Shown here: piece by piece, positions 8,190 through 21,663 of the stretch
Numbering within the stretch: position 1 is the stretch's first letter
Layout of the letters: every line of letters starts with the position of its first letter
Assembly: GCF_024298765.1 (NCBI RefSeq)
Contig: NZ_CP101210.1
Reading direction: 5' to 3' (one strand)
From: Escherichia coli
GTDB lineage: Bacteria; Pseudomonadota; Gammaproteobacteria; Enterobacterales; Enterobacteriaceae
Length of the DNA: 64,000 nucleotides
Made by a program: the position numbers and the translations under genes
The notes under the pieces: generated by a model
The model's database searches: none
What the model saw: only the letters and a program-made list of their open reading frames with translations
Told to the model about the DNA's origin: nothing

Positions 8190-8216
8190 ATGCACTGGAT
8201 AAGGATTATCCAATTC

Positions 8217-8255
8217 TAAAAAAAAGCCCGGACGACTGTTCGGGCTTGTCTTTTT
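8217..8255. terminator. Bidirectional intrinsic terminator shared by convergent ydbK (+) and micC (-)
   Basis: GC-rich hairpin (aagcccg ... cgggctt) flanked by an A run on one side and a T run on the other. Confidence 0.75.
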
Positions 8256-8327
8256 ATATGTTGGAAAATCAGTAGCAATGCAATGGCCCAACAGAAAATA
8301 AAATCTGTGACAATAAAGGCATATAAC
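8218..8327 (-). ncRNA. micC: MicC sRNA (Hfq-dependent repressor of ompC/ompD)
   Basis: Reverse complement reads GTTATATGCCTTTATTGTCACAGATTTTATTTTCTGTTGGGCCATTGCATTGCTACTGATTTTCCAACATATAAAAAGACAAGCCCGAACAGTCGTCCGGGCTTTTTTT, matching remembered MicC with about one mismatch; located between ydbK and ompN. Confidence 0.9.
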
Positions 8328-8554
8328 CCGCGCAGAATAACGTATAGCAAATTAAAAGTATAATTTTTATTTTGTATGTATTATCTTCAATACATTCACC
8401 AGACTTATTATCATTTCCGTAGAATTATTTGATTAAGGTTTTACTTAAGGCGTAACAAATGATATTTATCGGCTAACTGAACTTCTCCTTTAGGATGTTT
8501 TCACTCCCCGAAATGGGGATAAAAGGCAAATAAAATAACTAAAGGATTTATTCA

Positions 8555-9688
8555 ATGAAAAGCAAAGTACTGGCACTTTTAATTCCTGCCCTGCTCGCCG
8601 CAGGTGCTGCACATGCAGCCGAAGTTTATAATAAAGACGGCAACAAATTAGATCTGTATGGCAAAGTTGATGGCCTGCATTATTTTTCTGATAATTCAGC
8701 GAAAGATGGCGACCAGAGCTATGCGCGTCTGGGTTTTAAAGGCGAAACCCAAATTAACGATCAACTCACTGGCTACGGTCAATGGGAATACAATATTCAG
8801 GCAAACAACACTGAATCTTCAACAAACCAGTCATGGACCCGTCTGGCATTTGCCGGACTGAAATTTGCAGATTACGGTTCTTTCGATTACGGACGTAATT
8901 ATGGCGTAATGTACGACATCGAAGGCTGGACCGATATGCTGCCTGAATTTGGCGGTGACTCTTATACCAATGCAGACAACTTTATGACTGGTCGTGCCAA
9001 CGGCGTCGCGACTTATCGTAATACTGATTTCTTCGGTCTGGTAAATGGTCTGAACTTCGCGGTGCAGTATCAAGGTAACAACGAAGGAGCCAGTAATGGT
9101 CAGGAAGGCACCAACAACGGACGTGATGTTCGCCATGAAAACGGTGACGGCTGGGGTCTTTCCACAACATATGATTTAGGCATGGGCTTTAGCGCTGGTG
9201 CGGCATACACCTCTTCTGACCGCACCAATGACCAGGTTAACCATACTGCGGCGGGTGGTGATAAAGCAGACGCGTGGACTGCTGGGCTAAAATACGATGC
9301 TAACAATATTTACCTGGCAACCATGTATTCAGAAACGCGTAACATGACCCCGTTTGGCGACAGCGATTATGCAGTTGCGAACAAAACCCAGAACTTTGAA
9401 GTTACTGCACAGTACCAGTTTGATTTTGGTCTGCGTCCGGCAGTCTCTTTCCTGATGTCTAAAGGCCGTGACCTGCACGCTGCCGGTGGTGCAGACAACC
9501 CGGCAGGTGTTGATGATAAAGATCTGGTTAAATACGCCGATGTTGGCGCGACTTACTATTTCAATAAAAACATGTCCACTTATGTTGACTATAAAATCAA
9601 CCTGTTGGATGAAGATGACAGCTTCTACGCTGCCAACGGCATCTCTACCGATGATATTGTCGCTTTAGGTCTGGTTTATCAGTTCTAA
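8555..9688 (+). CDS. ompN: Outer membrane porin OmpN (OmpC/OmpF family)
   Basis: 377-aa ORF; signal peptide [21 protein letters not shown]; C-terminal porin signature ending YQF. Confidence 0.95.
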
Positions 9689-10438: not shown

Positions 10439-11374
10439 ATGTCGCAAAATCAAGAAATTAGTAAGAAAGAACAATACAACCTGAACAAATTACAAAAACG
10501 TCTGCGTCGTAACGTGGGCGAAGCCATTGCTGACTTCAATATGATTGAAGAAGGCGATCGCATCATGGTTTGCCTCTCCGGGGGTAAAGACAGCTATACC
10601 ATGCTGGAAATTCTGCGCAATTTGCAGCAAAGCGCGCCAATCAATTTTTCGCTGGTGGCTGTTAACCTCGATCAAAAGCAACCGGGCTTCCCGGAACACG
10701 TTCTGCCCGAGTATCTTGAAAAGCTGGGCGTTGAGTACAAGATTGTGGAAGAGAACACTTACGGTATCGTGAAAGAGAAGATTCCGGAGGGCAAAACCAC
10801 TTGCTCACTGTGTTCTCGTCTTCGTCGCGGTATCCTTTATCGCACCGCAACGGAACTGGGGGCGACGAAGATCGCGCTGGGTCACCATCGTGACGATATC
10901 CTGCAAACGTTGTTCTTAAATATGTTCTACGGCGGCAAGATGAAAGGTATGCCTCCGAAACTGATGAGCGATGATGGCAAACATATTGTGATTCGTCCGC
11001 TGGCCTACTGCCGCGAGAAAGATATTCAGCGCTTTGCCGATGCAAAAGCGTTCCCGATTATTCCGTGCAACCTGTGCGGTTCACAGCCTAACCTGCAACG
11101 TCAGGTGATTGCTGACATGTTGCGTGACTGGGATAAACGTTATCCAGGGCGTATCGAGACGATGTTCAGCGCGATGCAGAATGTGGTGCCGTCGCATCTG
11201 TGCGATACCAACCTGTTCGATTTCAAAGGTATTACCCACGGTTCTGAAGTGGTTAACGGGGGTGATCTGGCGTTTGATCGCGAAGAGATCCCTCTACAAC
11301 CGGCGGGTTGGCAGCCTGAAGAAGATGAAAATCAGTTGGATGAGTTACGGCTGAATGTGGTTGAAGTGAAATAA
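10439..11374 (+). CDS. ttcA: tRNA 2-thiocytidine biosynthesis protein TtcA (PP-loop ATPase), with the native prophage-free N-terminus
   Basis: 311-aa ORF; PP-loop motif SGGKDS; CxxC pairs; N-terminus [12 protein letters not shown] differs from the remembered Rac-altered K-12 N-terminus. Confidence 0.93.
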
Positions 11375-15844: not shown

Positions 15845-16408
15845 TCAACGGCTGCGCTTAGCGTGGCGCTCCCAGTTTTCTTGCTTCGCCTGCGCCGTTT
15901 TACGTAGTGCGACGTAACACGCCCCGCTGCCGCCATGATGCGGTAGCGCGGTGCAATATGCCTGAACATCATCAAATTCGGTCAGCCAGCGCGCCACATA
16001 GCTGCGGACAATATTGGCATGCGATTTATCATCCCGCCCTTTACCATGAATAATCAGCACGTTACGCAAACCATCCGCCATGGCTTGTTGAATGAAACTG
16101 AACATCATTTTGCGGCACTCTTCCACCGGCTGGCGCAAAAGATTCAGGCTCGCCTGTTGCGGATATTTACCACTGCGCAGCTTATCCAGCACCCCATGTT
16201 GCAACCCTTCCCGCCGAAACTCCAGCGGCTGACTTAGCGGGATGATGTCGAGAAATCCGGTGGTGAGGAAATTATCAAGTTGCAGCGTGTCGATACGCTG
16301 CGGCGCACGTTGGTTACGCGTTGGATGCCAGTGGACATCTGTAGCACGTTTCAGCGGCTGGACATCTTCCATGGCGTCAAGAAACAGCGATTTGTCGTCA
16401 AGGTTCAT
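15845..16408 (-). CDS. smrA: Smr-domain DNA endonuclease SmrA
   Basis: 187-aa ORF; Smr domain (LIIHGKGRDDKS...); synteny next to dgcM. Confidence 0.9.
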   Translation of the reverse strand: MNLDDKSLFLDAMEDVQPLKRATDVHWHPTRNQRAPQRIDTLQLDNFLTTGFLDIIPLSQPLEFRREGLQHGVLDKLRSGKYPQQASLNLLRQPVEECRKMMFSFIQQAMADGLRNVLIIHGKGRDDKSHANIVRSYVARWLTEFDDVQAYCTALPHHGGSGACYVALRKTAQAKQENWERHAKRSR

Positions 16409-16602
16409 GTAACCTCCTATGCACCTTCACACGTCGTGATTCAGACGGGTTAATTGTTCATACTTACTGCATCGTTCCCTTCACAGATTGAAACAATACT
16501 CTACTTCATACCTGTGAGTATCTGCGCAGGCGGGGCATTTTATACTAGCCTGTTAGCAGTATCGAACAGTTTAGCCCGAGTTTAATTCAGCACAGGCTCC
16601 GA

Positions 16603-18117
16603 TCAGGATGATTTATTCATAGCAGGAACCAACAAAAATGCGATAAATAACAGACCACTGATTAGCAGAAAGGTATCCGAAAATGCCATAGTTTGCGCCT
16701 CCCTCAGCATCAACTGACTCAATAATTTGGTTGAAGCCAGTATTTCCGATGTCTGGTCACTTCCACTGCGATTAAAAAACAAAGCACTTCTGGAAATGAA
16801 GTCATTCACCGTATGGGGAACAGAAACCATTTTTTCACCCATTCTCGAAAAATGAAAATTAGTTCGATTATTGAGAATAGAGCCACACAGGGCAATACCA
16901 ATCGCGCCCCCAAGATTACGTGTTAAATTAAATACACCAGAGGCTAACTTCAGCCGTTCCTTTGGAATTCCCCCCAGCGTTAATGTTACGATGGGGGCCA
17001 TCGCAAACTGCTGCGAAATCCCTCTAATTGCCTGTGGAAACAGTAACTCCTGCCATCCCCATTCGTGGGTTATAGGGGTAAAAAGATACATTGAAAACAC
17101 AAATCCACCCAGCCCCGCCATCAACAGCCATCGCAGATTTATTTTTTTACTTAACCAGAAGTAAAAGGGAACAGAAAATAACTGGAAAATACCTGTTGTG
17201 CAAACGGCAAAACCTATCTCTTCGGCATTTAATCCGCGAACCTGCCCCAAAAACACAGGTATTAAATATACAGTAGAGAATATCCCAACCCCTCCAGAAA
17301 AAGAAAAAAAACATCCCAGCGTGAAATTTTTATCCTTAAAAGCATGAAGATCCATTATCGGATTGGATATTGTAAGTGTACGCGCAGCAAATAAAATAAA
17401 ACTCACCAATGCCAGAACTGATGTCAGCAAAATAGTATTATCATCCAGCCATCCCCAGCGCGCTCCTTCTTCAAGGGTATATTCCAGACATCCCAGTGTC
17501 ATGGCCAACAGGATAATACTCGGATAATCAGCAACTTTCAGTAAAGAGAGATCAGGTTTATCAAAATTAACCAGAAAAGGAATACTCAAAACTAAATATA
17601 TGCCAGGTAATATATTGATATAAAATAGCCATCGCCAGTCGAGGTTATCAGTGATCCAGCCCCCCAGAGTTGGCCCTAGCGTCGGTGACAGTGAGGCCAG
17701 CGCACTGACTACCGCAGCAGCCAACCCCAACTCTTTACCCTGGTAATAAATAAACGCCGTCGTGAAAACTAAAGGGATCATGGATGCGCCAGCCGCTCCC
17801 TGTAAAGCACGAAACAAAATCATGATCTGAATATTCCATGCAAGTCCACACGCGATACTCATTAAAGTAAATATTCCCGCGGATAGAGTAAAAAGCCAAC
17901 GAGTGGAAAATACCCGTGACAGCCACCCAGAGAGCGGAATAACAATAATCTCAGCAATTAAATAGCTGGTCTGAAGCCAGGCCATTTCGTCTTTACCTGC
18001 GGACAGACCACCACCTATTTCATTTAGGGATGACGATACAATTTGAATATCAAGCTGAGCAATAAATAATCCCATACACATACTGGCGAAAGCAATATGT
18101 TTACGCATAGACATCAT
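16603..18117 (-). CDS. MFS drug efflux transporter, EmrB/QacA (DHA2, 14-TMS) type; not a K-12 gene at this position
   Basis: 504-aa hydrophobic ORF with MFS architecture; start overlaps the stop of the upstream HlyD-family gene by 4 nt (operon). Confidence 0.8.
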   Translation of the reverse strand: MMSMRKHIAFASMCMGLFIAQLDIQIVSSSLNEIGGGLSAGKDEMAWLQTSYLIAEIIVIPLSGWLSRVFSTRWLFTLSAGIFTLMSIACGLAWNIQIMILFRALQGAAGASMIPLVFTTAFIYYQGKELGLAAAVVSALASLSPTLGPTLGGWITDNLDWRWLFYINILPGIYLVLSIPFLVNFDKPDLSLLKVADYPSIILLAMTLGCLEYTLEEGARWGWLDDNTILLTSVLALVSFILFAARTLTISNPIMDLHAFKDKNFTLGCFFSFSGGVGIFSTVYLIPVFLGQVRGLNAEEIGFAVCTTGIFQLFSVPFYFWLSKKINLRWLLMAGLGGFVFSMYLFTPITHEWGWQELLFPQAIRGISQQFAMAPIVTLTLGGIPKERLKLASGVFNLTRNLGGAIGIALCGSILNNRTNFHFSRMGEKMVSVPHTVNDFISRSALFFNRSGSDQTSEILASTKLLSQLMLREAQTMAFSDTFLLISGLLFIAFLLVPAMNKSS

Positions 18118-19145
18118 CTCTCATCGACACTGACGGTGACGGACAGTCCCGGGCGAAGAAGTTGCTTTAATTCCTTTGCGTCGTCAAATGCAATCCGTAC
18201 CGGGACACGCTGAACAATTTTGGTGAAATTGCCAGTGGCATTTTCTATCGGAATCAAGCTGAAACTGGCTCCTGTCGCTGGGGAAAGGCTTTCAATGTGA
18301 CCGTGAAACACTTCCCCTTTGAGAATATCAGCACGGATCTCAGCCTTCATTCCTGGCTTCATTCCCGCTATTTGGTTTTCTTTATAATTTGCATCAACCC
18401 ACAACTCACTGACTGGTACAAGTGAAACTAACGATGTGCCGCCTTCCACCCAACTGCCTGTATGGGCGCTGCGGTTTGCGACAATGCCATCAATCGGCGC
18501 ACGAACAAGGGTATATTCCAGATCCAGTAGTGCCTGAGTCAAAGCGGCCTGAACTTCTTCGATACTCGCACGTACGTTTTCTTCCTGAGCAGATAAAACT
18601 GCCAGCCGTTGCTTCTCCACCAGGAAATCGTTCGCGGCTTTGCGCTCCTTTGCTGCGACCTGCTGGTAGTCAAACCTGGCGTTATCAATAATTTGCTGCG
18701 ATATTGCCGCTGATTGTACGAGTTTTTCATAACGTTCAGTATCTCGCAGGCGCTTTTGCTCCTCATGTTTTACTGCCTGCCATGTTTCACTGGCACTTTG
18801 AATTATCGACTGCTGCATCGTAATAGTGGCTTGAATGCTTTCGAGATTGGCTTTTCTACTTTTTATTTTTGCCTCAAGCCTGGCGACATTTGCACGATAA
18901 TCCCGATCATCGAGACGCAGGATAATATCGCCTTTTTTTACGCTCTGATTATCACGCACCTCTATAGCAGAAATATAACCAGAAACTTTACTTGCCACCG
19001 TGGTAATATTACCACCAATGTAAGCATCATCCGTCGTCTGTATAAATCTTCCTTTGCTTACCCACCAGATAAAAAAGACAACGCCAGCCAAAATAATACC
19101 GATCGCTACTACCCCAATAAGCTGTTTTTTAGAAATTATCATCAC
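18114..19145 (-). CDS. HlyD-family membrane fusion protein (EmrA-like periplasmic adaptor)
   Basis: 343-aa ORF: N-terminal TM anchor (VVAIGIILAGVVFFIWW), long coiled-coil region, C-terminal beta-barrel-like domain; translationally coupled to the MFS gene. Confidence 0.8.
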   Translation of the reverse strand: MMIISKKQLIGVVAIGIILAGVVFFIWWVSKGRFIQTTDDAYIGGNITTVASKVSGYISAIEVRDNQSVKKGDIILRLDDRDYRANVARLEAKIKSRKANLESIQATITMQQSIIQSASETWQAVKHEEQKRLRDTERYEKLVQSAAISQQIIDNARFDYQQVAAKERKAANDFLVEKQRLAVLSAQEENVRASIEEVQAALTQALLDLEYTLVRAPIDGIVANRSAHTGSWVEGGTSLVSLVPVSELWVDANYKENQIAGMKPGMKAEIRADILKGEVFHGHIESLSPATGASFSLIPIENATGNFTKIVQRVPVRIAFDDAKELKQLLRPGLSVTVSVDER

Positions 19146-19500
19146 TCTTTACACCGTATATATCCGGAAACTTGCATTCGCCATATTTAAAATTTAACAT
19201 GGCTTATTTGATGATTTCTGACAAAATACCTACTGTAAATGACAATCACACTGCAACCCAAAGCATCACCAGGGCATCACATTATCGGACTGGATTCGGA
19301 ACATCTGAATGGAGGCACAGTTCCCTGGCATAAACATCTCTATGCCCAGTTGCTTTACCCGGCTGAAGGAGTCGTTCGTGTATGGGCTGGAGAAAGCGTC
19401 TGGCTAGTGCATGCCAGCAGCGCGCTTTGGCTGCCCCCACAAATGCCGCATAAGTTTGTTGCGACAGGCAACGTACTTTTAAAAACCGTACTGGTTTCAG

Positions 19501-19509
19501 AAGCGGAAA
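19501..19509. repeat. Left copy of the 9-bp target site duplication (AAGCGGAAA)
   Basis: Identical 9-mer directly abuts both ends of the IS (19501..19509 and 20567..20575). Confidence 0.9.
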
Positions 19510-20566
19510 GGCTTTGTTGAATAAATCAAATTTCGGGTAAGTCTCCCCCGTAGCGGGTTGTGTTTTCAGGCAATACGCACGCTTTCAGGTATACCTGCTT
19601 TCGTCATTTTGTTCAGCGCTCGTACCAGGGCCATAGCCTCCGCAACCTGACCATCGTAGTCACGCAGCGTCAGTGCCCCCCCGAACAGCTGTTTTACCCG
19701 GTACATCGCCGTTTCCGCTATCGAGCGACGGTTGTAATCTGTTGTCCATTTCCACCGCGCATTACTCCCGGTCATTCGCTGATTAGCCACTGCACGGTTA
19801 CGGTCTGCATATTCACCGGGCCAGTAACCCGCACCTTTTCGGGGAGGGATAAGCGCGCTGATTTTCTTACGCCGCAGTTCATCGTGACATAGCCGGGTAT
19901 CGTAAGCGCCATCGGCGGCGGCTGACCTGATTTTCCGGTGGGTTTGCCGGATTAACCCGGGGAAGGCCTCTGAGTCCGTAACGTTGTTCAGCGACAGGTC
20001 TGCACAGATGATTTCATGTGTTTTACTGTCAACGGCGAGATGCAGCTTACGCCAGATACGGCGGCGTTCCTGGCCATGCTTTTTGACTTTCCACTCGCCT
20101 TCACCGAAGACCTTCAGCCCGGTGGAATCAATCACCAGATGTGCGATTTCACCCCGGGTGGGCGTTTTGAAACTGACATTAACCGACTTTGCCCGCCTGC
20201 TGACACAGCTGTAATCCGGGCAGCGTAGCGGAACGTTCATCAGAGAAAAAATGGAATCAATAAAGCCCTGCGCAGCGCGCAGGGTCAGCCTGAATACGCG
20301 TTTAATGACCAGCACAGTCGTGATGGCAAGGTCAGAATAGCGCTGAGGTCTGCCTCGTGAAGAAGGTGTTGCTGACTCATACCAGGCCTGAATAGCTTCA
20401 TCATCCAGCCAGAAAGTTATGGAGCCACGGTTGATGAGGGCTTTATTGTAGGTGGGCCAGTTGGTGATTTTGAACTTTTGCTTTGCCACGGAACGGTCTG
20501 CGTTGTCGGGAAGATACGTGATCTGATCCTTCAACTCAGCAAAAGTTCGATTTATTCAACAAAGCC
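19510..20566 (-). mobile_element. IS903-like insertion sequence (IS5 family, IS903 group), 1057 bp
   Basis: Terminal 18-bp inverted repeats GGCTTTGTTGAATAAATC at 19510..19527 and, inverted, at 20549..20566; right end matches the remembered IS903 end GGCTTTGTTGAATAAATCGAACTTTTGCTGAGTTGAAGGATCAGATC; single transposase ORF; flanked by 9-bp direct repeats. Confidence 0.92.
19566..20534 (-). CDS. IS903-family DDE transposase
   Basis: 322-aa ORF (true start may be internal) resembling the remembered IS903 transposase (e.g. GRPQRYSDLAI..., WRKLHLAVD...THEIICADLSLNNVTD...); transcribed toward the HlyD/MFS genes. Confidence 0.9.
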   Translation of the reverse strand: MKDQITYLPDNADRSVAKQKFKITNWPTYNKALINRGSITFWLDDEAIQAWYESATPSSRGRPQRYSDLAITTVLVIKRVFRLTLRAAQGFIDSIFSLMNVPLRCPDYSCVSRRAKSVNVSFKTPTRGEIAHLVIDSTGLKVFGEGEWKVKKHGQERRRIWRKLHLAVDSKTHEIICADLSLNNVTDSEAFPGLIRQTHRKIRSAAADGAYDTRLCHDELRRKKISALIPPRKGAGYWPGEYADRNRAVANQRMTGSNARWKWTTDYNRRSIAETAMYRVKQLFGGALTLRDYDGQVAEAMALVRALNKMTKAGIPESVRIA

Positions 20567-20575
20567 AAGCGGAAA
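20567..20575. repeat. Right copy of the 9-bp target site duplication (AAGCGGAAA)
   Basis: See left copy. Confidence 0.9.
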
Positions 20576-21190
20576 GTGAAACGCTGGGAAAAGTTTGCTT
20601 CATGACGGGTATTTCACCCCTGTTAAGAGAATTACTAATTGCAATTAACCAACTTCCACCGTCGCAAAGTACCACAGATAAACAACAGTTACGTTTTTCA
20701 GCCCTCGAGACACTGATACTTCAGGAAATAAAAATGGGGGTGAAAATGTCACTTGAACTCCCTTGGCCAAATGATGAGCGGCTACAGCAGCTTTGTGAGA
20801 ATTTGCTAAACAACCAAGGGTATCTGCCAACACTGGATAATCTAGCGGATAAAATTAACGTCAGTAGCCGTACACTCATGCGCTTATTTGTTAAAGAGAC
20901 GGGATTAACATTTCGCCACTGGGTTCAGCAAATGCACGTTATTTCTGCAGTGACGCTTCTTGATGATGGATATTCGTTGACCAAAATTGCCCATCGTCTG
21001 GGCTATGCCTCAGCTGAATCGTTCGGCAATATGTTTAAGCGTCGAACGGGCTACTCGCCCGGTAAATTTACTCGTCGATTAACGATGCATGATTATGCAA
21101 TCACAAGGCAAATGATTTAACTTATATTTTCGTGAAATCTGTCACTGAAGAAAATTGGCAACGGATGGGTAAAACCGTTATAACACTGTC

Positions 21191-21285
21191 ACCGGTCACC
21201 AGGACCCCAGGCCGGATTTAAGACGAGGATGCACTGCTGTGTGTACTGTAGAGTCTGGCGGATGTCGACAGGCTCTATTTTTTTA
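21191..21285 (+). ncRNA. mcaS: McaS (IsrA) sRNA, CsrA-binding regulator of motility and biofilm
   Basis: ACCGGTCACCAGGACCCCAGGCCGGATTTAAGACGAGGATGCACTGCTGTGTGTACTGTAGAGTCTGGCGGATGTCGACAGGCTCTATTTTTTT matches remembered McaS core with GGA motifs and intrinsic terminator; from memory, so the 5' boundary is approximate. Confidence 0.65.
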
Positions 21286-21663
21286 TTCATTTTTTAGCTC
21301 TGTAAATAACCACATTCTCGCCGGGATTGGGGAATGAGTGACGAGATCAGTGGTGTCTGGCGGCTATCACGCCACAGAATCAAATAACAGATAGCCTACG
21401 GTAAAATTTCGCTGACTGGAATTATCCCACCCTCGATCCATGTGATGGCTTGCCCTCATTTCTTCAGGCAGAAAAATCAAAAAATCGCTTTATGCTATCA
21501 GACTGCGACAAACCAGACGCGAAACTGGGTACTTACTATTCGTTAGTCTTGCCCTATCCGCTTATCTTTTTGGTGGTATGGCTGCTGATGTTGCTGGCGT
21601 GGTATCTTGTTGGTCTGCCGATAGGTCCGGGGATTTACCCACGTTTGTCTTAAGAGAGAACGG

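Follow-up and report, generated by a model that had tools for sequence, protein, structure and literature searches.

An EmrAB-like efflux cassette between smrA and mcaS in Escherichia coli: a probable old resident, absent from K-12, with its regulator split by IS903B in one strain

Introduction

What kind of system occupies the interval between smrA and the gene for the small RNA (sRNA) McaS in some strains of Escherichia coli, is it still a working system, and was it gained by the strains that carry it or lost by those, such as K-12, that do not? The question arises from a 64,000-nucleotide stretch of E. coli DNA (contig NZ_CP101210.1, assembly GCF_024298765.1), hereafter the window, in which the interval from the smrA start codon to McaS (exactly 16409-21190) holds a cassette of three genes: a major facilitator superfamily (MFS) transporter and a HlyD-type adaptor, divergent from an AraC-family regulator. 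The original prediction, made from the nucleotide sequence without database searches, had described an efflux-type segment between these two landmarks, and each of the features that it described was found in its place. Our analysis leads to a reading that we consider probable, in which the cassette encodes a regulated EmrAB-like pump and has long resided at this locus, K-12-type lineages having lost it by deletion. In the present strain, its regulator has been split by an insertion sequence (IS).

Results

An intact EmrB/QacA-type transporter and its HlyD-type adaptor

Profile and PDB sequence comparisons place the transporter as a full-length member of the DHA2 (EmrB/QacA) subfamily. The TIGR00711 model gives 404.8 bits against a cut-off of 230.2, with residues 9-496 covering positions 3-480 of the 485 in the model, and the best sequence match in the PDB is EmrB (8zal, E=7.6e-56). 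The protein is collinear with EmrB, which has 14 transmembrane segments (TMS), over residues 12-489; the 14-helix topology is taken from this alignment, our own hydropathy count being too noisy to provide an independent number. In an alignment of the transporter orthologues with EmrB, residues D23, R103/Q106/G107 and G148/P149/G152/G153 are invariant, and these are the marks of an antiporter: the aspartate of TM1, the R-x-x-Q-G of motif B and the G-P-x-x-G-G of motif C.

The adaptor gene lies immediately upstream, and its TGA stop codon overlaps the ATG of the transporter gene by 4 nt (ATGA), which is the classic arrangement for translational coupling. The coupling that had been proposed for the pair, along with a transporter of 504 aa, is thus what the DNA contains. 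The adaptor scores 134.4 bits with TIGR01730 (cut-off 94.9), as expected of a HlyD-type adaptor, and has a hydrophobic segment at residues 9-27 that forms its N-terminal anchor, while the Pfam domains BSH_RND and Beta-barrel_RND_2/AAEA are found in its orthologues. The PDB entry for EmrA (8zar) matches residues 6-341 with E=9.6e-43, and MdtN is the third-best NCBIfam match, at 161.9 bits. Coordinates of all features are collected in Table 1.

Table 1. Features of the smrA-mcaS interval and its two landmarks (positions in the window).
Feature	Position	Strand	Remarks
smrA	15845-16408	-	start codon at 16408; left landmark
smrA-MFS spacer	16409-16602		cassette-specific from 16419 on (blastn against K-12 and sequence view)
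DHA2-family (EmrB/QacA-type) MFS efflux permease	16603-18117	-	504 aa; intact open reading frame (ORF)
HlyD/EmrA-like periplasmic adaptor	18114-19145	-	343 aa from GTG at 19145, or 342 aa from ATG at 19142
Divergent control region	19146-19238		93 nt between adaptor and regulator
Regulator, 5' fragment	19239-19509	+	codons 1-90; cupin/AraC_binding domain
Left target-site duplication	19501-19509		9 bp, AAGCGGAAA; direct reading
IS903B (IS5 family, IS903 group)	19510-20566	-	1057 bp
IS903B transposase ORF	19566-20534	-	322 aa; NF033579 (IS5 family), 357 bits; co-directional with the pump operon
Right target-site duplication	20567-20575		9 bp, AAGCGGAAA; direct reading
Regulator, 3' fragment	20576-21120	+	linker and HTH_18; last ~36 nt (21085-21120) survive as the K-12 remnant
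McaS sRNA	21191-21286	+	Rfam RF00115, 112.8 bits; right landmark; allele linked to the cassette haplotype

The pseudogene label on the transporter gene

RefSeq (PGAP) labels the transporter gene a "frameshifted" pseudogene in all 15 complete genomes that we sampled (L001, L002, L021-L023 and L031-L040). The annotated pseudogene is 1456 nt long and ends 59 nt short of the real stop codon. In 11 of the 15 genomes, the ORF is uninterrupted, and the alignment with 82%-identical orthologues is collinear up to the C-terminus and reaches the last residue. A truly broken gene, as the label would have it, is rejected for the window and for these 11 genomes by ORF translation and orthologue alignment. 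The pseudogene as annotated stops at the same point as truncated Shigella flexneri proteins that end out of frame (e.g., WP_162471458.1, ending ...AFSVPFC), whose tail can be read in another frame of the window DNA. Because of this coincidence, the flag appears to have been inherited from a frameshifted reference protein, and the label is probably an annotation artefact. With the gene labelled in this way in all of the sampled RefSeq genomes, protein-based pangenome and resistome analyses therefore miss the transporter.

Comparison with characterized pumps

EmrAB-TolC of K-12 is, like the cassette, built on a two-gene operon for a periplasmic adaptor protein (PAP) and a DHA2 MFS protein with 14 TMS, without a gene for an outer-membrane factor (OMF). 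It supplies the best PDB matches for both cassette proteins, and EmrA residues 20-346 align with the cassette adaptor (6-341) over its full length. However, identity is only 28% to EmrB and 31% to EmrA, EmrA has a C-terminal extension of ~45 aa that the cassette adaptor lacks, and EmrAB is a core system with an upstream MarR-type repressor (MprA/EmrR), whereas the cassette is accessory and has a divergent cupin-AraC protein. The EmrKY-TolC system of E. coli and Shigella has the same PAP and DHA2 architecture with overlapping genes (30% identity to EmrY, 31% to EmrK), but it is found at another locus and is controlled by the two-component system EvgAS, in contrast to the one-component AraC-type regulator of the cassette.

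Closer assignments were tried and rejected. The transporter is not an EmrB orthologue (NCBIfam NF000391, 219.1 bits against a cut-off of 925), and its 28% identity makes it a paralogue. The adaptor falls outside the EmrA/EmrK subfamily TIGR00998 by score (266.7 bits against 390.8), though the alignment is full-length, and likewise below the EmrA equivalog NF011715 (205.4 bits against 563). Two further systems of E. coli, MdtNOP and AaeAB, share with the cassette the use of a HlyD-family adaptor. On the inner-membrane side, however, MdtO and AaeB are not known to be DHA2 MFS proteins, and the two systems also have other regulators than the cassette, AaeR being of the LysR type.

The cassette pump had been presented as a third paralogue of the EmrAB-type pumps in E. 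coli. That count is too low, as MdtNOP and AaeAB are listed beside EmrAB and EmrKY as the MFS-type tripartite systems of this species, i.e., those that depend on a PAP and are neither of the resistance-nodulation-division (RND) type nor of the ABC type (PMC8277102). Nothing on the cassette was found in the open-access literature when it was searched by protein accession, flanking gene or product names, and the database names of the cassette proteins and their closest relatives are all generic. The expectation that the system had no characterized name agrees with this, the same three genes being present at this position in 27% of complete genomes under generic names only. By its sequence, the cassette is an uncharacterized pump of a well-known family, with no sign of a new kind of mechanism; a recognizable efflux pump family was also the original prediction, and the profile, PDB and pairwise comparisons all bear it out.

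Relatives in other genera

Outside of Escherichia, the closest transporters are 82-83% identical and are found in Citrobacter, Kluyvera, Hafnia, Salmonella enterica subsp. salamae, Yokenella and others; Pluralibacter carries two forms, 82% and 72% identical. Each locus examined contains the same triad of a divergent cupin-AraC regulator (260-262 aa), an adaptor (342-344 aa) and an MFS transporter (500-505 aa). Beyond the E. coli locus, the triad was seen in at least four chromosomal contexts that all differ from one another (L006, of the Citrobacter/Kluyvera type; L009; L024 in Pluralibacter; and L026 in Hafnia). The flanking genes are not the same in these contexts, so the three genes move and are retained together.

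More distant relatives place the same pump subfamily in other company. Raoultella/Klebsiella-type genomes (P0110, 62% identity) have overlapping adaptor and transporter genes, as in the cassette, with a downstream ketoacyl-synthase gene and a co-oriented regulator that is of the HxlR type rather than the AraC type; the pump pair has therefore been combined with different regulators. In the EmrCAB-like operons of Paraburkholderia (uncharacterized loci L013-L016 and L018), the adaptor-MFS order is that of the cassette, and the transporter, at 51-52% identity, is far closer to the cassette protein than EmrB (28%) or EmrY (30%). Unlike the cassette, these operons include an OMF gene of their own and have two MarR-type regulators in place of an AraC-type protein. 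The presence of both an adaptor and an OMF gene in these relatives supports tripartite operation of the subfamily. In Acinetobacter and Oxalobacteraceae, the genes for distant relatives of the regulator (36-44% identity) likewise diverge from an MFS transporter gene, which lends support to control of the adjacent pump by the regulator.

The regulator, its control region and the IS903B insertion

When the IS and one copy of the target duplication are taken out, an 816-nt ORF is restored whose 271-aa product is identical, residue for residue, to WP_000156573.1, the regulator as annotated in other strains. Pfam identifies AraC_binding (27-88), Cupin_2 (25-83) and HTH_18 (180-258, E=1.4e-21) in the rejoined protein, and on this domain evidence it is a member of the AraC/XylS family with an N-terminal cupin-type sensor and a C-terminal double helix-turn-helix. 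None of the named NCBIfam regulator models comes near its cut-off on this protein. A divergent AraC-family regulator of 271 aa had been predicted here, and its family, divergence and length stand; what has to be amended is its state, as the regulator gene of this strain is, from the reading of both junctions, a pseudogene split by IS903B.

The identification of the element as IS903B follows from its size, its repeats, its single transposase gene and its 9-bp duplication, all of which fit. Its termini are perfect 18-nt inverted repeats (GGCTTTGTTGAATAAATC) that occur in the window at these two places only, and it is 99.05% identical to the RefSeq-annotated IS903B copy in L002. Together with the duplication, it accounts for 1066 bp of the 4.8 kb, and it interrupts the regulator gene at codon 91, so that the sensor half is cleanly parted from the DNA-binding half. 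The junction was found in no other of 5426 complete E. coli genomes, and the nearest strain, MS1679, has an intact regulator and a 100% identical pump; the insertion is therefore recent and strain-specific. In another avian E. coli strain, FY10 (NZ_CP095816.1), ISKpn26, also of the IS5 family, lies in the pump-gene region, the pump DNA being otherwise 100% identical to that of the window. The cassette has therefore been struck by IS elements repeatedly.

Within the control region, a block of ~45 nt adjoining the regulator start is conserved in an alignment of the cassettes from E. coli, the divergent Escherichia lineage E69 (labelled E. coli and taken from a one-genome-per-species collection), the Citrobacter/Kluyvera type, Pluralibacter and Hafnia, and is the natural candidate for a shared promoter/operator. 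A scan of the control region for promoters and terminators gave 13 matches against 7.6 +/- 2.9 in shuffled sequence, which is not clearly above chance, and no promoters were assigned. The regulator gene and McaS share a strand, with 70 nt (21121-21190) from the stop codon of the former to the start of the latter, and both haplotypes have conserved the mcaS promoter region with its CRP-like GTGA-N6-TCAC site. In cassette-positive strains, transcription of the regulator gene might conceivably continue into mcaS; the IS would prevent this in the present strain.

Distribution in E. coli and the junction in K-12

The pump genes are present in 1455 of the 5426 complete genomes (27%), always at this locus, once per genome and almost always on the chromosome. 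The K-12-type junction is present in 3919, and the two haplotypes together account for 99% of the genomes. A plasmid origin of the cassette was rejected, as the only full-length "plasmid" matches were to Mb-size or mis-assigned E. coli records. A survey across species with exact peptide words returned 7 loci only, and is no basis for calling the cassette absent from E. albertii, E. fergusonii and other species.

Homology to K-12 (98%) spans smrA, ends at 16418, which is 10 nt upstream of the ATG, and restarts at 21085. The segment had been thought missing from K-12, and positions 16419-21084 are indeed without a K-12 counterpart. The spacer downstream of the transporter gene (16409-16602) is 100% identical in the cassette-positive genome L001. 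With only 10 nt upstream of smrA in common with K-12, any smrA promoter is fully different between the haplotypes. K-12 has 111 bp at this site without detectable similarity to the cassette, and a search of this filler for a remnant of the cassette found nothing beyond chance 8-10-mers. Upstream of the K-12 mcaS promoter, the last 12 codons of the regulator gene do align (27/36 nt), and the remnant in K-12-type genomes is also seen as a 69-nt match (88%) that is annotated "AraC family transcriptional regulator" in cassette-positive genomes. In E69, the cassette occupies the same site and is 94-98% identical, with flanking core genes that are 84-96% identical to the window. The cassette is held to be an old resident of the locus because of this shared site in E69 and the regulator remnant that K-12 has kept. 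On these comparisons, loss of the resident cassette by deletion in K-12-type lineages would be a better fit than recent gain.

The composition of the cassette sets it apart from its surroundings. None of the other long ORFs in the window (39 in all) has a GC content as low as that of the transporter gene, 42.4%, and their average is 51.6 +/- 3.6%; the adaptor gene has 46.0%, the cassette without the IS 44.2% and the window 50.4%. GC at third codon positions (GC3) is 0.40 in the transporter gene and 0.42 in the adaptor gene, with a mean of 0.56. The transporter gene is thus AT-rich, as had been proposed from a single 80-nt count whose value of 38% was slightly too extreme. Horizontal acquisition, which had been suggested on the same grounds, is sustained to the extent that the low GC fits an older foreign origin, while a recent gain explains the pattern of presence and absence less well.

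Other differences around the locus

Beyond McaS, the abg operon is missing (21287-21663): a 219-nt remnant of the 3' end of abgR, only 76% identical to K-12 abgR, is joined at 21505 to the last ~150 nt of abgT, a deletion of 5040 bp relative to K-12 and L001. This junction is present in at least 685 of the 5426 complete genomes and in E69, so the deletion haplotype is old and widespread. In the first hairpin loop of McaS (~21197-21211), the allele of the cassette haplotype departs from that of K-12 at 9 of 15 nt (TCACCAGGACCCCAG versus CGCAGAGGAGACAAT in K-12), with GGA kept and the remaining sRNA almost identical; the allele is common to L001 and, nearly, to E69. On the other side of the locus, K-12 homology ends at 10446, the end of ttcA, where the Rac prophage begins in K-12, and the window beyond this point carries a 377-aa ORF (8555-9688) and MicC (8210-8330). 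As K-12 homology stops at the end of ttcA and other sequence continues, Rac appears to be absent from this strain.

Discussion

Our findings portray a pump with its own sensor-regulator, and the comparisons above allow a mechanism to be proposed for it. The adaptor and transporter genes would be co-transcribed and translationally coupled, yielding an EmrAB-type pump in which a proton-driven, 14-helix DHA2 permease in the inner membrane works with a membrane-anchored adaptor. Since the cassette has no OMF gene while the Paraburkholderia relatives encode one, the pair most likely docks onto TolC in the manner of EmrAB and EmrKY. By the same analogy, the pump most likely carries a small toxic molecule, amphipathic or aromatic, out through both membranes. 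What the regulator senses through its cupin domain is most likely the substrate of the pump or a small molecule related to it, and it would most likely act from the conserved 93-nt intergenic region to switch on the pump operon. In this strain, the intact pump genes are probably without normal inducible control after the IS903B split.

A number of observations weigh against this reading, and we acknowledge them here. The cassette does not include an OMF gene, so the use of TolC is argued by analogy only, and the substrate cannot be read from the sequence. Proteins of the AraC family can repress as well as activate. As the adaptor scores below the EmrA/EmrK threshold and the transporter far below that for EmrB, the behaviour of the pump may differ from that of EmrAB. 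Purifying selection on the cassette genes is evident and favours our reading, but it is weaker than on the flanking core genes: in the comparison of the window with E69, the ratio of nonsynonymous to synonymous substitution rates (dN/dS) reaches 0.14 in the adaptor gene and 0.11 in the regulator gene, above the 0.00-0.04 of the flanking core genes. For the transporter, comparison of E. coli with the Citrobacter/Kluyvera-type locus L006 gives ~0.04, with dS saturated. All 15 sampled genomes have an intact regulator gene, 13 an intact adaptor gene and 11 an intact transporter gene, with the full set undamaged in 11; the lesions in the remaining four are a frameshift, a stop and two deletions. 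In 139 of the 1455 cassette genomes, coverage of the pump DNA is below 80%, and the transporter gene of E69 is frameshifted. Pump-gene damage in a minority of E. coli and the raised dN/dS therefore mean that the cassette is not under strong selection in Escherichia.

These same observations feed an alternative explanation in which the cassette is a decaying relic that has no selected function in E. coli, is silent here after the loss of its activator and is heading for loss. Deletion of the cassette in 72% of genomes would be in keeping with this, as would a range of independent lesions: deletions in UPEC 26-1 (internal) and MS20677 (at the junction), frameshifts in M45 and E69, a stop in SCU-125, the ISKpn26 insertion in FY10, truncated Shigella and O55-type proteins, and regulator variants of 166 aa on 363 contigs, to which the IS903B insertion in this strain adds one more. 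However, the intact triads in 11/15 genomes and intact regulators in 15/15, dN/dS values of 0.04-0.14 that are well under neutrality, and the conservation of the triad across genera all speak for a selected function, and we regard decay without function as unlikely, if worth keeping in view.

The insertion itself can also be interpreted in the opposite sense, as an adaptive event that frees the pump operon from the regulator and either drives or de-represses it. Activation of efflux operons by an inserted IS is a familiar phenomenon in Enterobacteria. The transposase gene points at the adaptor-transporter operon, the end of the IS lies 365 nt upstream of the adaptor start, and the minus strand between the two showed no terminator-like site. 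Against this, the uniqueness of the insertion among the 5426 genomes gives no sign of recurrent selection, no outward IS903B promoter was identified here, and lost expression is the simpler expectation for an activator of the AraC type. Activation of the pump by IS903B is thus improbable, and the regulated pump deprived of its normal control in this strain stays our preferred reading.

A recently acquired island, inserted between smrA and mcaS in some lineages with the K-12 arrangement as the ancestral state, could account for GC and GC3 values below those of neighbouring genes, for the presence of the cassette in several genera and differing contexts, and for a dS between the window and E69 (0.09-0.20) that is below that of most flanking genes (0.22-0.72), but we hold it to be hardly likely: the borders have no integrase, att-like repeats or mobility genes, the sole IS is strain-specific and inside the regulator, K-12-type genomes keep the last 12 codons of the regulator by the mcaS promoter, the site is identical in a lineage that is ~8-10% divergent, no recent donor is visible among non-Escherichia copies (the nearest have ~73-80% DNA identity), and the cassette is not carried on plasmids. 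The lower dS leaves room for later exchange of the cassette between lineages by homologous recombination, which could occur in an old resident as well.

Inventories of efflux in E. coli have been built on K-12, where this cassette is absent. An adaptor and DHA2 pair with its own sensor-regulator could explain differences between lineages in intrinsic tolerance. We put forward as a tentative possibility that approximately one quarter of strains have a further functional, ligand-inducible tripartite MFS pump, one that makes particular lineages tolerant of a certain compound from the host, the diet or a drug. If this is true, the pump would have been overlooked through its absence from K-12 together with the RefSeq pseudogene flag on its transporter, many extraintestinal and avian pathogenic isolates would be among its carriers, and IS903B could have made it constitutive in the present strain.

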